A stretch of 64,000 bases of DNA, taken from positions 81,778,001-81,842,000 of the forward strand of contig OX597826.1 of the NCBI GenBank assembly GCA_951406725.2, given 5' to 3'. Positions 8,960-62,892 of this stretch are shown here, in pieces (positions within the stretch are counted from its first letter, which is position 1; each line of letters opens with the position of its first letter). The translations under genes were made by a program, and so were the position numbers. This DNA is from Octopus vulgaris (lineage: Eukaryota). The notes below the pieces were generated by a model that was given only the letters and a program-made list of their open reading frames with translations, searched no databases and had not been told where the DNA came from.

Positions 8960-9970
8960 ATGATGCGTAGTGTTCGAGAAACGCTCTTTTAAATCGAGGA
9001 TATCGTACAACCCATTTACCATTTGCCGGTTCTAGACTCTCACATATTCTTACCATTCCGTCTCTTATCCACTGTACGTTATTCTATATAGTCTGATCTC
9101 CCCACGAGACAAAAGTATTATCTACACCCTTCTACGTCCTCCATCCGTATTTTGTTACCTGTCTTTCTTATATTTGAGTGAATGGGATCTGCACTCTGGA
9201 AAACCTCATCGTCCTTCCTTGTTCTTCTGTCATCATGCTCCCTTCTCTTCATTCTGATGAATAAACTACCTTGAGAATAGTCTTTTCACTCAGATTATTG
9301 TTCACTTTGACAACAAATATAAAGCGTTCCCTGGGCAACGCACAACGTTTAGGCGGTAATATTTGCTAGAAGAGATGTTGGCGTTCCTTTTCAGATTTAT
9401 TTTTTATTCGGACTGTCTCTGGTCGAGATAAACTACCTTACTTCTCACCTCATCCCAGATAATCTCCACTTGCAGATCTCGACCAAACCAGACACTGAAC
9501 CCTCTAACTGTTCCTCCTGTCCAGCGCCCTACGACGCTGTTGGTGACATGATCCTCCCCGTCCAGGCTCTCTGCTACAAGACCCTTCGTTGATATTCGCT
9601 TCTGTCACCTTACAACCGTACCAACCACCACGATGCTCTTTTGTCAAGCAATATGACGGTAACTAACTCCGCGTAAACCGACACGGATTTATCGCATCCT
9701 AGTTTACGCTCGATGATCCTCGATATCTCTAATTTCTGCAACAGGGGCTCAACTCTCAGTACATATCGAAAAGAGGTGACAGCCTTAACGAACAGAGCGC
9801 ATGGCACTAAATCGTTCCGAAAGTTGGTCATTCACCGAAACTACAGTGCCGCACATTGTAGCGATCGAAATGCAGTAGCGAGGATGGAAACCTGCTTTTA
9901 TGAGGACAGCAACCGTGTATTGATGGTCGACGTACTGAGAGAGCTTTTGACTGATCTAAATGCCTCAAGA
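8960..9970 (-). mobile_element. Decayed L1/Tx1-clade LINE, reverse transcriptase region
   Basis: Frameshifted minus-strand peptides LDQSKA..VDHQY, YVLRVEPLLQKLE, VSVYAELVTV (decayed YADD motif) and VWFGRDLQ occur in the order expected for a Tx1-type RT. The upstream boundary is approximate. Confidence 0.75.
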
Positions 9971-10007
9971 CCCATCGATTCCAGGATTCTCGTCCATCCT
10001 CATTATT

Positions 10008-10238
10008 TATTTCTTTATTGCCCACAGAGGGCTAAACATAGAGGGAACAAACAAGGACAGACAAACGGATTAAGTCGATTGTATCGACCCCAGTGCGTAA
10101 CTGGTACTTAATTTATCGACTCCGAAAGGATGAAAGGCAAAGTCGACCTCGGCAGAATTTGAACTCAGAACGTAACGGCAGACGAAATACCGCTAAGCAT
10201 TTCGCCCGGCTTGCGAACGTTTCTGCCAGCTCGCCGCC
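10008..10238 (-). mobile_element. tRNA-derived SINE (family B), full length, 13-bp TSD
   Basis: Reverse complement of the copy at 57901-58110. Flanked by the direct repeat CATCCTCATTATT at 9995-10007 and 10244-10256. Confidence 0.92.
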
Positions 10239-43599: not shown

Positions 43600-44848
43600 C
43601 GAGGTGGGGACCCAAATGTAATCGGAAACGTTCTCTGTGGGACAAGCTCGTGTAGTTCAGGCTTTCGCCACTAGAAGCCACTTGATGCGACCCTCATGCA
43701 TTTCCCTGCCGACCGACGTCATTTTTTGGAGTCGTATTGCCGTGGTTTGTCATTGCAGTGCTTCTTCCCGGTTACTTCATTTTTGCTATGGCCGAAACGA
43801 AAGAACAGCGTGTTTCCGTGAAATTCTGTTGTCTGCTGGGGAAAACGGCGGTCGAAACAGCTGTCATACTTCAAACAGCTTACAAGTTTATGAGTGGGAA
43901 TGGTCACTTGTCGCTTGAAGACCAACCTCGTTCAGGGTGTCTGTCGACCTCCTGAACGAACGAAAACATCAGGAAAACTCATGAACTGATCTTGGAGGAC
44001 CGTCGCTGAACAATTGACGAACTTGTTGATATGACCGCTGTGTCCTGCAGCTCCTGCCAACGAAATTGGAGTGAAGAATTGCAAATGAAAAGAGTTGCTG
44101 CAAAATTTGTACCTCACTTGCCCACGGAAGATCAAAAGCAGTCACAGCTGAATGCATATCGTGAATTAAAACAGGTGGAAGTTGGTCTGGACCTTTTTTA
44201 CGCTGGTGCGGAAGCTTGTGCTACGCCTGAGACCTGGAAATGAAGTAGCAATCAAGTCAATGGAAGCACTCAATGTCACCACGTCCCGAAAAAGTCCAGG
44301 GCCAAGACGATGTTGATTTGTTTCATCGATGCGAAAGGAATTGTTCACTCATAATTTCTTGCACCTGGTCAAACTGTTAGCAAGACATTTTATTTAGCAG
44401 TTCTGAAACGTTTGTGAGACTCGGTGGGACGAAAACGCCCCGACCTGTGGCAAAGTGGAGGGTGGCGGTTTCATCCCCCTCAATGCGACAACGCATCACG
44501 CCTCAACTGTGAGACAATGTTTGATCAAAAATGGCAAGCCCCAGCCTACCCACCCTCCCTTTTCACCCTTGCTCTCTGCGACATGTTTTGTTCTCTCGGA
44601 TGAAAAAGTCTTTAAAGGAAAACGTTTTGCAGGTGTGGAGGACGTGAAGGAAAGAAAAAAAGAAAATACGACGGAGGCATCACTTTGAACAGAGTTCCAA
44701 GACTGCTTCGAACAGAAGAAAACGCGTCAGACCGATGCCTTGCTTCAAATGGAGGAATACTTTGAAAGCGACAAAAGTGTAAACGTAAAACTAAGTGAAT
44801 AAAATAATATTGCAAAATTCCGGTTTCTATTGGGCAACCCCCACCCCG
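43600..44848 (+). mobile_element. Near full-length decayed mariner transposon
   Basis: TA on both sides and imperfect TIRs (CGAGGTGGGGACCCAAA..CGGAA / TTCCGG..TTGGGCAACCCCCACCCCG). Transposase remnants EQRVSVKFC..GKTA.ET, LEDQPRSG and AAKFVPHL (WVPHEL-like motif). Confidence 0.92.
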
Positions 44849-45092: not shown

Positions 45093-45130
<38 letters not shown>

Positions 45131-45136
<6 letters not shown>

Positions 45137-45656
45137 TGGTAAAGTAAAAAAATTTACTTTACCACACACCGAGCTTTTTAGAAATAGCAGCCAAAAGTTT
45201 GGCTATTTCTTCAACTGCAAGAAAAAGTCTCCCAGACAATGCATACTCAGAAATAACTCACATAGGTATAAGGGAAAAACAACGAAAGATCACATCCATA
45301 AATCCAAATCAGAAGAAATCTCTGAGCTGATGAAGGAAATGTTGGCGTTTAACCCATGAATCCAGAAACAGGCTGTCCTCGGGTATCTTATATGGATGTG
45401 ATCTTTCGTTGTTTTTCCCTTATACCTATGTGAGTTATTTCTGAGTATGCATTGTCTGGGACTTTTTCTTGCAGTTGAAGAAATAGCCAAATTTTTGGCT
45501 GCTATTTCTAAAAAGCTCGGTGTGTGGTAAAGTAAATTATTTTACTTTACCCTATTTTTATAAATTAATATTTCAATTATACCGTAAATGGTCTTTTTAC
45601 ATACAGAACACTGCTCGGTCGAATTAATTAATAATTAATTAATTCTACCCTTTTTT

Positions 45657-45660
<4 letters not shown>
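45131..45660 (+). mobile_element. Non-coding fold-back element (~170 bp inverted arms) inserted in (TA)n, Penelope/retrozyme-like
   Basis: 45131-45300 is a near-perfect reverse complement of 45391-45558. The 90-nt loop carries a hammerhead motif. Confidence 0.8.
45321..45383 (+). ncRNA. Type I hammerhead ribozyme motif with canonical core
   Basis: Stem I UCUGAG/CUCGGG, CUGAUGA at 45327-45333, stem II closed by GGA/UCC, GAAA at 45365-45368, stem III ACAG/CUGU and cleavage triplet GUC at 45375-45377. Confidence 0.8.
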
Positions 45661-45700
<40 letters not shown>

Positions 45701-46396
45701 CATACGAAATATATAAGGTTCAGTTGAATTAAGTTGAGGCACCAAGTCAGTCCGGTATTATCCGCACAGCTCGAAGTAAGGTGAATAAAAGGCAAATAAT
45801 TAACAAGGATGTCAAGGTATTAATGCAGTGACACCCTTGTTACTTATTTGCTTTATATATATGTGTGCGTGTGTGTGTGTGTGTGTTATTAAATAAGGCT
45901 CGGACAAAACCCTTTTAGAATGCTATGCAAAGCTGCTCGTCCACGATTATTGGCTCCCTGATATGTACATACAGTAGAAGTTCCTCTCTTACTGGATATA
46001 CTCCGGGAATTCCATTGTAAATAAGTGCATAAATGAAAAAACTAGGGGCATCGAAGGAGCGATGCATACCCTGCCAGCAGATAATCTTTGTCGCAGATTA
46101 TTGTGTGGTTTACAATGCGTTGCTTACCCAGGCTTTTTGGTGGAACTGAATTAATTATCTTTAATTATCACCATTATAGGTATTTATACTCCGGTGAAAT
46201 TAAGAAATCAAGTCCCAGATAAACGAAACCATCGAATCCATCACTGTACACACACATACACACACACAGACCCAAGCACACCCAGACACAGACGCGTATG
46301 AATGTGTGTATGTACTCACACTTGTCTACGCGCATAGGTACACCATGATCTATACACACGTTAACGAGTGTTAATTCATCTGAAAAAGATGATATA

Positions 46397-46721
46397 TATC
46401 TCTTTACTGCCCACAAGGGGCTAAACATAGAGGGGACAAACAAGTACAAACAAACGGATTAAGTCGATTACATTGACCCTAGTGCGTAACTAGTACTTAA
46501 TTTATCGACTCCGAAAGGATGAAAGGCAAAGTCGACCTCGCCGGGCGAAATGCTTAGCGGTATTTCGTCTGCCGTTACGTTCTGAGTTCAAATTCCGCCG
46601 AGGCCGACTTTGCCTTTCATCCTTTCGGGGTCGATAAATTAAGTACCAGTTACGCACTGGGGGCGATGTAATCCTTGTTTGTCCCCTCTGTGTTTAGCCC
46701 CTTGTGGGCAATAAAGAAATA
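46397..46721. mobile_element. Head-to-head fusion of two 5'-truncated family B SINEs
   Basis: 46397-46540 is a minus-strand 3' portion joined directly to a plus-strand copy at 46541-46721. Confidence 0.9.
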
Positions 46722-48458
46722 CATATAAATCTGTAGTACAGCTTTCTCAGTCTGCTAATTGTTTTTAGCGAAGGAAAATAATATAGAATGCTGTAAATAA
46801 CCTTAAACTTAGGTAAAAGTGCTAAAAGTCGTATAGATTATTATTCTTCAAACCTTTGATTGCTGATTACCAATCATGAAGTTCACTTTAGAATTTTCAT
46901 AATACTTATTTAATTCTCTGTATAGAGCAAAGTTTTATTTTCAGCTGTGATTATTTCTCAATTAAATTATTTAGCTCAATACACGGACCTGATTCCTACT
47001 TCACTTACATAATTATTGTTTTCGATATGGCTCCGGTTTCCTATTAAAGCTAATCTCTCTCAGTGTAGTCGGATTTTTACGCTTAATTTGCATTAGGCGG
47101 TAATCAATAGAAATATTTTAGTCGTGGCTCCCTGACTGACTGAGGAAAAGTTTTCTGAATGGACATTCAACAATAGTTCCATATAAACCGGTTGCTTTTG
47201 TCAAAATCTTTGTGTTCAGTTTGTCCGTTTATTTCCCTCATTAAATGTATACCAAATGTGTAATTAATCGTTAGCATTAGGGTGGGGGGTCGGGGAGGCA
47301 GGGTGAGCTATTTGTGGGATGGGATTATCATTGTTAAGCAATTGTTATTTATATATTAATATCTCAATGAAATGAATTATGTGCCACAGTTGAAAGGTGA
47401 GATGCAACTAAAAGGTTTTGCCAATCAAATAAAGGTTAAAAGTTGACGGCTTTTAACCGAAAGGGGAAAGAATACCGAATTAAAGAATATAGCTTTATCT
47501 TGATTCTGTCTGGCTGCAACATCATCGTTTCATTGTATCTGAGATATTAAAGATATCAACCTAAAGTGTTGACACTTAACAATGTCCGATACAAGATGAT
47601 CAAATACGCATATTTGTAAATAGCACGGTTATGCTCAGACAAACATGCCTACATATCTACATAACCACCGGGAAACCAGCTAACAAACAAACCACCGTAC
47701 CTACCTGCTTACCTACTTTCATCTATATAAAAATGTGTGTGTGTGTCTGTGTATAGGAACGACGAAACTCGAAGGAGATAGAGCTATAAATATTAGCATG
47801 TAAATATTGGGTTCAGCCTTCCATTTTCTTAATTTAGAGGGTTTCTAAACCAATTTTATTTATAGCTTTATCTGCTTTGAGTTTCAAAGATGAGTATTTC
47901 ACGTTCTCACGAAGTTTATAAACTCTCATCTCATCAACAACAAATGTGTGTGTGTGTGTGTGTGTGTACACAAATGGACTCAAGTAGCTAAAGACGGAGC
48001 TGCGACCTATGGTTGTTCCACTAAAAATCTCCTACTGTTGTCCTAAATATATAAAAAAGAATGCAATGCATAAAATAAACTCGGACATACAACCTGGCGG
48101 GTGTTTACCGTTAGAACCCAGTTGATCATAGACGTCCAATGAGGTCTATTCTCTGGGCTAAATAACCTCAACATCAACACCTTCATCCACACCAGCCATA
48201 ATAAAATCAACATCCCAAAGCCATCGCATCAAAAGCGAGACAGTTACTTTTGCGGCGACCAACCTCCTTGCCTGCATGATTAAGATAATAAATTCCGACG
48301 TGGTCTTCATTAAAAATGTGAAACTGGCTGCTGACCAAGTCTCTTAGGGGCCCATTTAGGAAGAAAAGTTATTTAAACATTAAAACTAACGCAGTCTCAT
48401 TCAATAAGCATAGCAATGTGCGTAAATGATGTACTGTAACATTTATATTAATGTTGAT

Positions 48459-49798: not shown

Positions 49799-51216
49799 AC
49801 TTCCTACTGAACATTATATTAAACTATGATTAAAACCTACTTTCATGTAATACTTACACACACACACACACGTGTATGTATGTATGTAATGTGGTAGAAG
49901 TATATGTACATGTGTGTATCATTTAAGAATAGATACTTCATTTGGATGGGGAAGTTTTGTGCTACTCCTTTCGTGAAATTGTTCTTTCAATTGCATCAAA
50001 TGTACGAAAAAGAAACAAATGCTCTATTTAACGATGTAATTTCCTGACATGCATTCGGTTGCTCTCCTATTCAAGATTGAAACCTGTTGCGAAATGCTAC
50101 AAAGTTAACTCTATTATAAGATATAAAATGGTATTTATGGATTCCAGTTGATAGCCAAATAGAGCAGAGATATATTGACTGTCAAGTTCTCACTTCATGC
50201 CTTATTGACGTGACCATGTGGAGTCGTTGGACGGGATAATTAAATTTGCCTTTCAAAATTCGCCAAACTGAAAATTAAGTATGAAAATACCTGGAAAAAC
50301 AATTGGATGGCTTTGCTATCTTTTCCCAACTTAATTTAATTTGAGGATTAGTCCCAGACTAATGAGTGATTGCATTTGCTGAAACAGCAGAAACTATGCT
50401 GGAGATAAATCCAAAAACATTTCACGGTCCTTATCACATTTTTTTCTTACAAAATTCTGGCTTCGTGTTGAAGTAAATTAACTACCGTTCTTCTCATCTT
50501 CTCTTGGAAATTTCTTCTTCTTTTTCTTCCTTTTGATTGCTGCATTATATTTAAAACTAAACTACCAATTCTGACCTGTGAGTACTCTGCTCTTTTATTT
50601 TGCAGCCATTCAGATGTTTCTTAAAAGCAAACTTTTCTTTCACTTCATATAATTCTATTGGCGGCAGATATCAGCAAACAGTTTCTAAGCAGCCATTTTG
50701 AATGAAGTGATGCTGCTGTGATTTCCAGTTAATGGTTCTAGCAATATTTCGTGTAATATAATGATATCAACGGGACGTCTATGATAGTGTTTCACTTTGT
50801 GTGGGAAAACAATGAATTTTAGTTGTGCCATGAATAGCATCCAGAGAATAAACTGCATAAAGACAGGATAAGAGATTCTTGGATGAATGTCAAGCGAACA
50901 TCAGTGAAAAGATTAGCTAAGTGAAAAGAAATCATAAAACTCAAGTAATTAATGAATATAATGAATAAAAATAAATAAATTTCCAGAGGAGGTGGATGTT
51001 TGAAGCGAGGAAAACACTGTGAACAACAACAACAACAACAAAAAAGAGAAGAATTGAAAGTCTTTCAAACTATTCCATTCATGCTTTCTAATCTTTTTTT
51101 CCATTGTTTCTTATTGAATTAATTAGCGTGGTCTTCATTAATTTTTAATTAATCATACACTCTAACACTTTTCCCTTAAACTAATATTACACAGACTGAC
51201 AGACTCACACACACAC

Positions 51217-53848: not shown

Positions 53849-54690
<842 letters not shown>

Positions 54691-55117
54691 ACATGCAACC
54701 ACGCGCACGCTTGCACTGCGTCACCAACCAAATTTCCTTGTTTGGAAATAGATGGCAATACTTGGACTAATGTCATTTACAATCACTGTTAGAAAAGTGA
54801 AAGAGACTCAGATCGCTGACAGCTCGTCGTCTCTGCAGGTATCAAGCCGAATGTGTCTTGCGCACCATGGCATTATAACAACTTTTGCCCTACTTTTGAA
54901 ATCTCCTACTTCTACTGTTACTAAACCATAGGCACGTCTTCTACACTCATCACCCACGACTCGTCTTCCAATTAAATATTATACAATATTTGTATTTATG
55001 TGTGGCTATTTGATGGAGAAGTGCACGATTCTTTCTATGCATTAAGGAATGTATGCGTCTAAATACACATGCACACTCACAAACAGACACACACATACAC
55101 AAAATGCACACACACAC

Positions 55118-56260
<1,143 letters not shown>

Positions 56261-61507: not shown

Positions 61508-62892
61508 CACTGGGGGGAAAATGAAAAAAGGATTTGTGGTGCCTCAGGTTTTAGACCTGATTCTAGGCATATCCACTCCTACGAATAAGAATATGGCCTT
61601 CATTTCTTTCTAGCAGCTCAACTTTTTGAGATAATGTACAGCTGCCCACACGTGAATCTGAGACAGGCTGCCGACAGGATTATTACAGAATCAGAGATGG
61701 TCTGTAATGTATTTAACGAATACTTATTTAAATACAATGCGTACTTAAGATAGACTTTGTATTCAAATAAGTATCAAGGCATTTGTCAAATACACTATTG
61801 ACCATCTGTGATTCTATAAAGACCCTGTCGGCGACCTGTCTCAAATTCATGTGTAGGAATCCGTACTTGTCAATAGATGTATCTTTCATGAGCCTGTCAC
61901 AGCGTCTGTTTCTAGGATAGCAGAGGCATACTGGAAATGACAGAATATAGTCAGTCGAGGATTACCAGAATTTGGCAGTTTCAGAACATGATAGTAAGAG
62001 AAAAGAATGAAATTGTGGAACGACTGGTTGACCAGAATCAGATCATTTTACCAGCACTGCATATCAGATTAGGTTTAACGAAACAGCTTGTAAAGGCTCT
62101 GAACAAAGAAGGGGAGATACTTTGGCTACATCTGCAGGAAAGTTCCAGTGTTGAGCATGGAGAAGCTAAAAGCAGATACTTTTGAGAACTCACGGAAATC
62201 CACATTTCAAAGATTCAAAGAACAATGCTGAGGCAGATGCATGGTCTTCGTTCAATATGTTTGTAGAGAATTCTCTTGGGAACTATAAAACAGATAATTA
62301 CACTGAGTTAGTAGAGAGAATGCTGTCTTCTTTCTTCTGTCAGCTTGTCTGTACAATGAGTATCAAGGTGGATTGTCTCCACAGCCACTTGGATCGTTTC
62401 CCAGAAAAGCTTGGTAACCCAAGTGAAGAGCAGGGTAAATGATTCCACCAAGATTTAAGAACTATGGAAGAAAGATACCGGACAGACTGAGACACCCACA
62501 TGACGGTAGATTACTGCTGGTCCACCCGAAGGGATTGCTCTGGTGCAGCTCACCGCAAGAAGTCTTTGAAGCGCTGCTCGAGTGAAGGCTATCAATGACA
62601 ACTTTCTATGCTTGCTCCATTGTTATCTTATTCTCTGATGTAAATTCTTCATAAATAAAAGAAATCTACGCGTATGAATGTGTTTTATTAATCCAGAAGG
62701 CAAAAATAATGATCTGTAGACATCAGTCCTGGTATCCGATTGGTCGTGTGCGTTAAAATTAGGGGTTTATCATATCTCAGTAACCAGAGGTGATGGAAAA
62801 GAACAAACTGATGGCGTATTTATATTCAAAGACCAAAACTTACCTAAAAAAAGGTCTAATATCTTTGGCACCAATTTTCATGTTCCCCAGGG
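61508..62892 (+). mobile_element. Internally deleted Chapaev3-like (CMC superfamily) DNA transposon
   Basis: Peptides ILPALHIRLGLTKQLVKAL, MSIKVDCLHSHLDRFP, SEEQGK*FHQD and MTVDYCW. Imperfect TIRs CACTGGGG..ATGAAAA..GGTGCC and GGCACCAATTTTCATGTTCCCCAGGG. Confidence 0.8.

Follow-up and report, generated by a model that had tools for sequence, protein, structure and literature searches.

In the 64-kb stretch of Octopus vulgaris DNA analysed here (the window), a copy of 530 nt that can fold back on itself lies within a (TA)n target microsatellite, which flanks it on the left (45093-45137) and on the right (45661..45704); the same target is found in the flanks of other insertions of its family. 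Its inverted arms at 45131-45300 (170 nt) and 45391-45558 (168 nt) align with 4 mismatches and one 2-nt gap, and the inverted-repeat search recovered them as an arm pair of 94% at 45118-45229/45460-45571 and a pair of 100% at 45230-45300/45391-45461, with a spacing of 90 nt. The fold of the 530-nt copy has a z of -36. Re-alignment, together with the inverted-repeat and fold analyses, reproduced the near-perfect arms, the 90-nt loop, the terminal hairpins and the (TA)n flanks reported in an earlier note on this DNA, and its statement that there is no recognisable ORF also stands, the longest stop-free frame being 92 aa over two tandem units. Past the right arm, the element extends for roughly another 100 nt and ends near 45660-45668.

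When aligned to the tandem unit of its family, the copy reads as unit positions ~91-267 reversed, followed by positions 1-371 forward. The inverted arm (45131..45300, minus strand) corresponds to unit ~91-267, is 5′-truncated and has its outer end at what we call start site 1; the inverted-repeat search placed the site-1 hairpin that it carries at 45137..45163 (minus strand), and this is the ‘terminal hairpin’ of the earlier note. The sense segment (45300..45668, plus strand) corresponds to unit 1-371, is likewise 5′-truncated and has its outer end at start site 2. The two meet head to head at 45300 with a 1-nt overlap, at a junction that is single-copy in the genome by pattern search. On the plus strand, the sense segment contains a type I hammerhead motif (45321..45383), the part complementary to the inverted arm (45391..45558, from the alignment and fold), a hairpin (45525-45551) directly upstream of start site 1, where 3′ ends fall at unit 250-285, a ‘tail’ of about 100 nt from start site 1 to site 2 (45559..45668), present only at the right end, and a second hairpin (45617..45649) directly upstream of start site 2, where 3′ ends fall at unit 359-371. 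Fold-back chimeras are a known artefact of long-read sequencing, and the structure might therefore have been produced during assembly or library construction. However, the arms differ at 4 positions and by the 2-nt gap, and both outer ends lie at the two end sites of the family, adjoining (TA)n, as at many other loci. We rejected an assembly chimera on these arm differences and end positions, and we regard an artefact of either origin as extremely improbable.

Several other features were observed in the window. Directly to the left of the insertion, at 44016-44690, are fragments that resemble what we take to be a mariner-type transposase, with no match in Pfam. A second inverted-repeat element of about 335 bp, with arms that are 91-92% complementary and a MITE-type look, occupies 46392-46726, and ends like those of this element recur near 9936-10031 and 58087; an (AT)n array of 2.4 kb extends over 53851-56259. 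The earlier note takes the ribozyme to be antisense to a host gene; the ORF list, composition scores and splice-bounded frames over the window gave no clear host gene, none of its 27 ORF or exon candidates matched Pfam (0/17 and 0/10), and the best minus-strand candidate had no match in the atlas. Three splice-bounded open frames on the minus strand (61745-61930, 50194-50267 and 50450-50545), also with no Pfam or atlas match, may be exons of a minus-strand gene.

The hammerhead motif is the only match of the type I descriptor in the window, with both strands searched. Stem I, formed by UCUGAG (45321-45326) and CUCGGG (45378-45383), has 6 bp, two of which are G.U; the core consists of CUGAUGA (45327-45333), GAAA (45365-45368) and GUC (45375-45377), with a predicted cut after C45377; and stem III is the quasi-palindrome ACAG-G-CUGU (45368-45376). 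The earlier note considered this a canonical type I hammerhead. The type I assignment is borne out by the presence of CUGANGA, GAAA, UH and stems I-III, whereas the word ‘canonical’ goes too far, in that A9 and G12 are not directly joined by the closing pair of stem II and Rfam scans, with the gathering score and with E<=10 as thresholds, returned no hammerhead family. An extra A is found both after CUGAUGA (45334) and before GAAA (45364), and stem II consequently begins one step out. Because copies of families A (that of the window), B and E all retain an additional base on either side of stem II, we interpret it as a family trait, not as decay of the window copy. The hammerhead fold is not the minimum-energy fold of the loop, and forcing the ribozyme fold costs 5.4-7.3 kcal/mol; two copies of the ACAG-G-CUGU quasi-palindrome pair with each other at -10.0 kcal/mol. 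When 8 hammerheads representing four families were aligned for covariation, 97.8% of the cells were paired and two-sided changes occurred in 7 of the 12 pairs, including C3-G8 to U3-A8; as the structure was read from these same, related sequences, the covariation supports the fold and does not prove it. At window position 45357, T is found only in the window copy among 49 exact-pattern matches, most of which have C, and it turns a predicted distal G-C pair of stem II into G.U. Penelope-type hammerheads with an extra base after A9, U3-A8 cores, action as dimers and low in vitro activity have been reported (PMC4209133, drawn on in part, as are the other sources cited below); the motif described here differs from these in its 6-bp stem I, in a stem II that is both long and interrupted, and in a second extra nucleotide, located before GAAA.

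On sequence grounds, the feature is assigned to a non-coding hammerhead repeat of about 560 bp, that is, to a non-LTR retrozyme family (family A). A search with the loop gave 41 matches from the 40 scored of 416 candidates, and only the window itself matched across the junction; a second repeat search gave 123 matches from 40 of 1926 candidates. The exact hammerhead pattern had 49 matches in the genome, a lower bound that covers a single subfamily, as compared with 0 for the reversed control. A natural array (L028) is built of a 562-bp unit with one hammerhead per unit, no frame longer than 92 aa and a GC content of 35%, and the circular fold of this natural unit has an energy of -164 kcal/mol (z = -7.1, 40 shuffles). 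From 60 sampled loci, which were the top-scoring matches and are biased towards young and long copies, we obtained 43 insertions, window included; 12 of these hold a full internal unit, and the longest measures 2902 bp. The earlier note had asked whether copies form tandem arrays, and they do so head to tail, in arrays of up to about 5 units. The copies closest to the sense segment of the window are 96-98% identical to it, which indicates that the family is young.

Retrozymes are recognised by tandem units that each carry a type I hammerhead, and such units are present at the family level, as are the lack of protein-coding capacity and the low GC content. No LTR-like layout was seen in the unit and the sampled loci, and no ORF with RT and GIY-YIG domains was found in the unit or joined to the sampled copies. 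The window copy, with its one ribozyme, falls outside the two-unit ‘active’ rule of 10.64898/2026.07.22.740005. The identity of the copies, the lack of an ORF and the tandem and inverted family together support the earlier reading of a young, non-autonomous, hammerhead-bearing element related to Penelope elements or retrozymes. Contigs of four of the 24 listed sequencing runs (X1, X5, X7 and X11), which are RNA only by guess, cover 27-30 of 30 bins of the natural unit; contigs in 3 of the 4 runs cross the head-to-tail joint, with one 597-letter contig spanning more than one unit, and this cover fits tandem DNA as well as circles and is given no weight here.

Diverged relatives, designated families B, C, D and E, were found beside Penelope-like loci, and the search for a helper element, which covered two sets of Penelope-like loci and three DNA searches starting from diverged relatives, yielded sister retrozyme families and no coding element. 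Tandem units are 556 bp in family B and 560 bp in family E. At least four sister families of retrozymes (B-E; L107:1480-2600, L191:1530-2090, L128-L130, L142, L146 and L164:334-680) share with family A the hammerhead layout and an end module of two hairpins, and many of the sampled copies of family C are small fold-backs.

How could a ribozyme have come to lie in the loop of a hairpin? Inverted insertions made up 19 of the 43 sampled insertions of family A (window included), 9 of 29 in family B and 15 of 21 in family E, proportions that are not genome-wide figures, as the best-scoring loci were sampled. Very short hidden inverted arms were also noted in 5 of 54 rows of apparently simple insertions; some of the rows were mis-parsed, and these arms are left out of the counts. 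The family A inversions are all head to head (19/19), and their junctions all differ; a search of the 2.8-Gb assembly with the junction pattern of the window, allowing up to 3 mismatches, gave a single match. The earlier note had proposed that a unique breakpoint would reduce the hairpin to an inversion by-product and had asked whether the fold-back geometry recurs in the genome: the junction proved to be single-copy, and no two of the 19 sampled inversions have the same junction. Because the window junction is unique and every inversion breakpoint is different, the ribozyme in the loop is a by-product, and the hairpin is an accident of insertion. By a simple calculation, a whole ribozyme would fall within a loop shorter than 100 nt for about 0.5% of junction pairs chosen at random; the window copy, which was itself the search query for the family A sample, is the only one of the 19 inversions in which this is the case.

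The same observations bear on the suggestion, made in the earlier note, of a dedicated fold-back element that displays its hammerhead in the loop and would cut itself to yield long dsRNA with defined ends. An RNA transcribed from the copy would indeed form a duplex of about 168 bp with the ribozyme outside the arms, and one other locus has a 79-nt loop that holds nearly the whole ribozyme. We nevertheless consider such an element very improbable, given that the junction is single-copy, that 19 inversions show 19 different junctions and that the window copy alone has a whole ribozyme in a loop of less than 100 nt; moreover, one hammerhead makes one cut, so that cleavage would define only one end of the duplex. 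A dedicated dsRNA generator was rejected largely on the unique breakpoint. A MITE-like or fold-back DNA element was likewise rejected, the junction being unique and the arms varying in every copy.

The outer ends of the insertions follow a stricter pattern. In family A, the 3′ ends concentrate at two places, with 34 of 62 at unit 250-285 (site 1) and 17 of 62 at unit 359-371 (site 2, some 100 nt downstream), in contrast to the 24 5′ ends, which are scattered along the unit. The two ends of an inverted insertion are site 1 and site 2 in 11 of 19 inversions of family A, 8 of 9 of family B and 15 of 15 of family E (34/43 in total), and both ends are at the same site in 0 of 43; at least one end is at neither site in 8 of the 19 family A and 1 of the 9 family B inversions. 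If 34 + 34 ends were paired at random, 34 mixed pairs out of 34 would be expected with a probability of 6e-10, and we see no way in which the selection of loci could have excluded same-site pairs. In families A, B and C, a hairpin precedes each site despite the differing sequence, although the one at site 1 is weak in B and C (z -1.4 and -1.7). Insertions continue across the predicted cleavage site, and no family A junction or 5′ end falls exactly there; since the copies read through this site, the template would have been a circle or an uncut multimer.

These fixed ends help to distinguish among the enzymes that might have moved the unit. Twin priming gives head-to-head inverted copies, the same order as that seen here, and LINE fragments are plentiful in the flanks of the sampled copies. 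In 34 of the 43 inversions, however, the second priming is at a fixed site and not at a random one, there is no poly(A) tail, and the ends are internal to the tandem unit. It is therefore hardly credible that the unit was moved by an unrelated LINE RT and that the inversions reflect ordinary twin priming at random internal sites. The fixed outer ends suggest that insertion was likely carried out by the enzyme of a Penelope-type retrotransposon. First, the family shows the Penelope-like insertion signature of 5′ truncation, an inverted copy, a one-sided tail and a microsatellite target; inverted 5′-truncated copies, one-sided tails of 30-40 bp and a (TA)n bias have been described as typical of these elements (PMC8557442). 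Second, a Penelope-like protein has been purified and shown to cleave AT-rich DNA on both strands and to extend each of them, with synthesis beginning at two positions inside the RNA that set the limits of the genomic tail, and the hammerhead is protein-assisted and dispensable for insertion (PMC11167929); the paired fixed ends of the retrozyme match these two internal reverse-transcription starts and the one-sided tail. Third, insertions of both kinds have a head-to-head inverted copy, a tail at one end, a (TA)n target, two alternative 3′ ends that adjoin stem-loops and a hammerhead upstream of the ends. In contrast to Penelope-like elements as described in the parts of these sources used here, the retrozyme has no RT/GIY-YIG ORF, its tandem copies are whole non-coding units, and its tail is about 100 nt long, as opposed to 30-40 bp.

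Candidates for the helper protein are present in this genome, which carries many intact 781-aa GIY-YIG frames with an RT match at E 3e-6, below the curated cut-off, and a CxxxCxxC linker; a CX2-5CxxC linker has been tied to Neptune elements (PMC8557442). Intact Neptune-type elements terminate in (TA)n and use two alternative 3′ ends, and the tail is present in 4 of 19 copies of one Neptune-type family (20 given) and in 9 of 20 copies of another (30 given). A young Neptune-type family with many intact 781-aa ORFs is represented by L067:1-2870 (G000:C16:20837296-20840559) and its relatives; members of this family insert in (TA)n, carry at the 3′ end a hammerhead-like motif whose core is U3-A8, and optionally have a tail of about 36 nt. 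In a third Penelope-like family, the 3′ end (L061:520-720 and L063:2793-2904) bears a weak, AT-rich likeness (64%, E about 0.003) to the stretch from site 1 to site 2, a possible lead to the helper that may also be due to chance. Our inference of a Penelope-type helper is drawn from common habits, not from common sequence.

Might the unit be simply the pLTR of an autonomous Penelope-like family that was not sampled, the short copies being its 5′-truncated insertions, with no free circular RNA? The tail, inversion and (TA)n signature are the same as those of Penelope-like elements, an extra nucleotide after A9 has been described for Penelope-like hammerheads (PMC4209133), retrozymes are reported to be related to pLTRs (10.64898/2026.07.22.740005), and 60 of thousands of candidate Penelope-like loci were sampled. 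In those 60 loci, we found no autonomous element with the retrozyme unit as its own end, and the strong matches to the unit were separate insertions in the flanks. Upstream of position 1, moreover, sampled copies run into position 562 of their own unit, for up to about 5 units and with no ORF, and a tblastn search with the Neptune-type protein as query gave only separate pieces near the copies of families A, B, C and E, with no ORF contiguous with any of them. We therefore think it unlikely that the unit is only a pLTR.

Non-LTR retrozymes are among the closest known systems. Metazoan non-LTR retrozymes were defined, and their circles shown, in PMC7229834, which names Penelope-like elements as strong candidate helpers; 10.64898/2026.07.22.740005 links retrozymes to pLTRs by co-occurrence and phylogeny and reports in vitro cleavage in 1 of 9 Xenopus retrozymes. 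The family resembles those retrozymes in its tandem units, which are non-coding, low in GC and provided with a single type I hammerhead apiece, in its monomers, dimers and multimers, in the predicted self-pairing of the circle and in the co-residence of Penelope-like elements. Its unit of about 560 nt exceeds the range of ~170-400 nt given in PMC7229834 and lies within the 51-972 bp of 10.64898/2026.07.22.740005. Inverted insertions, a tail and two fixed ends such as those seen here did not turn up in the passages and term searches of either main text, and the words ‘inverted’ and ‘octopus’ do not occur in the main text of PMC7229834; expression and cleavage are shown in those papers, whereas the family described here is known from DNA sequence.

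From these comparisons, we consider it quite probable that the feature is a single head-to-head, doubly 5′-truncated insertion of a non-LTR retrozyme, likely made by a Penelope-type RT-endonuclease that primed on both DNA strands of (TA)n. We propose that the hammerheads cut tandem transcripts, probably as dimers by way of the palindromic stem III and possibly with the help of a protein, and that the resulting RNA units are ligated into circles. The helper protein would then nick both strands of (TA)n, so that one target strand would serve as primer at site 1 and its partner at site 2, both sites lying immediately 3′ of a hairpin; the two cDNAs would extend 5′-ward, circling the template if they became long and so yielding tandem units, and would stop at variable points before being joined head to head as two truncated cDNAs. 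In the window copy, the cDNAs would have stopped after about 177 and 371 nt, and chance would have left the ribozyme in the 90-nt loop. With one ribozyme and two-thirds of a unit, this copy is likely a dead end; as it does not contain unit positions ~372-562, no unit-length RNA can be made from it.

We further lean towards the view that animal retrozymes possess a pair of hairpins on which a dimeric Penelope-type enzyme docks, and that the two target strands are primed at separate fixed sites of the retrozyme RNA, site 1 for one strand and site 2 for the other, and never both at the same one. The family itself is a further non-LTR retrozyme, and its insertion geometry is already known. We found no description of the paired-site rule in retrozymes, or of this family, in the literature on retrozymes, Penelope-like elements and octopus or cephalopod hammerheads, which was represented mostly by open papers, without the supplements that may list such families. 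The enzyme that moves animal retrozymes has so far been argued from co-occurrence and sequence likeness, and the origin of the inverted copies with one-sided tails in Penelope-like elements is a standing question. The strict rule of one end per site in three non-coding families, together with an intact candidate helper protein, makes both questions testable in a small system in which a single purified protein acts on a 560-nt RNA and a (TA)n target. If our interpretation is true, the families of about 560 nt would be a direct genomic footprint of the Penelope machinery moving retrozymes, they would provide a small non-coding substrate with which to explain the origin of inverted copies and one-sided tails, and a large proportion of their insertions would become long inverted repeats as a side effect.
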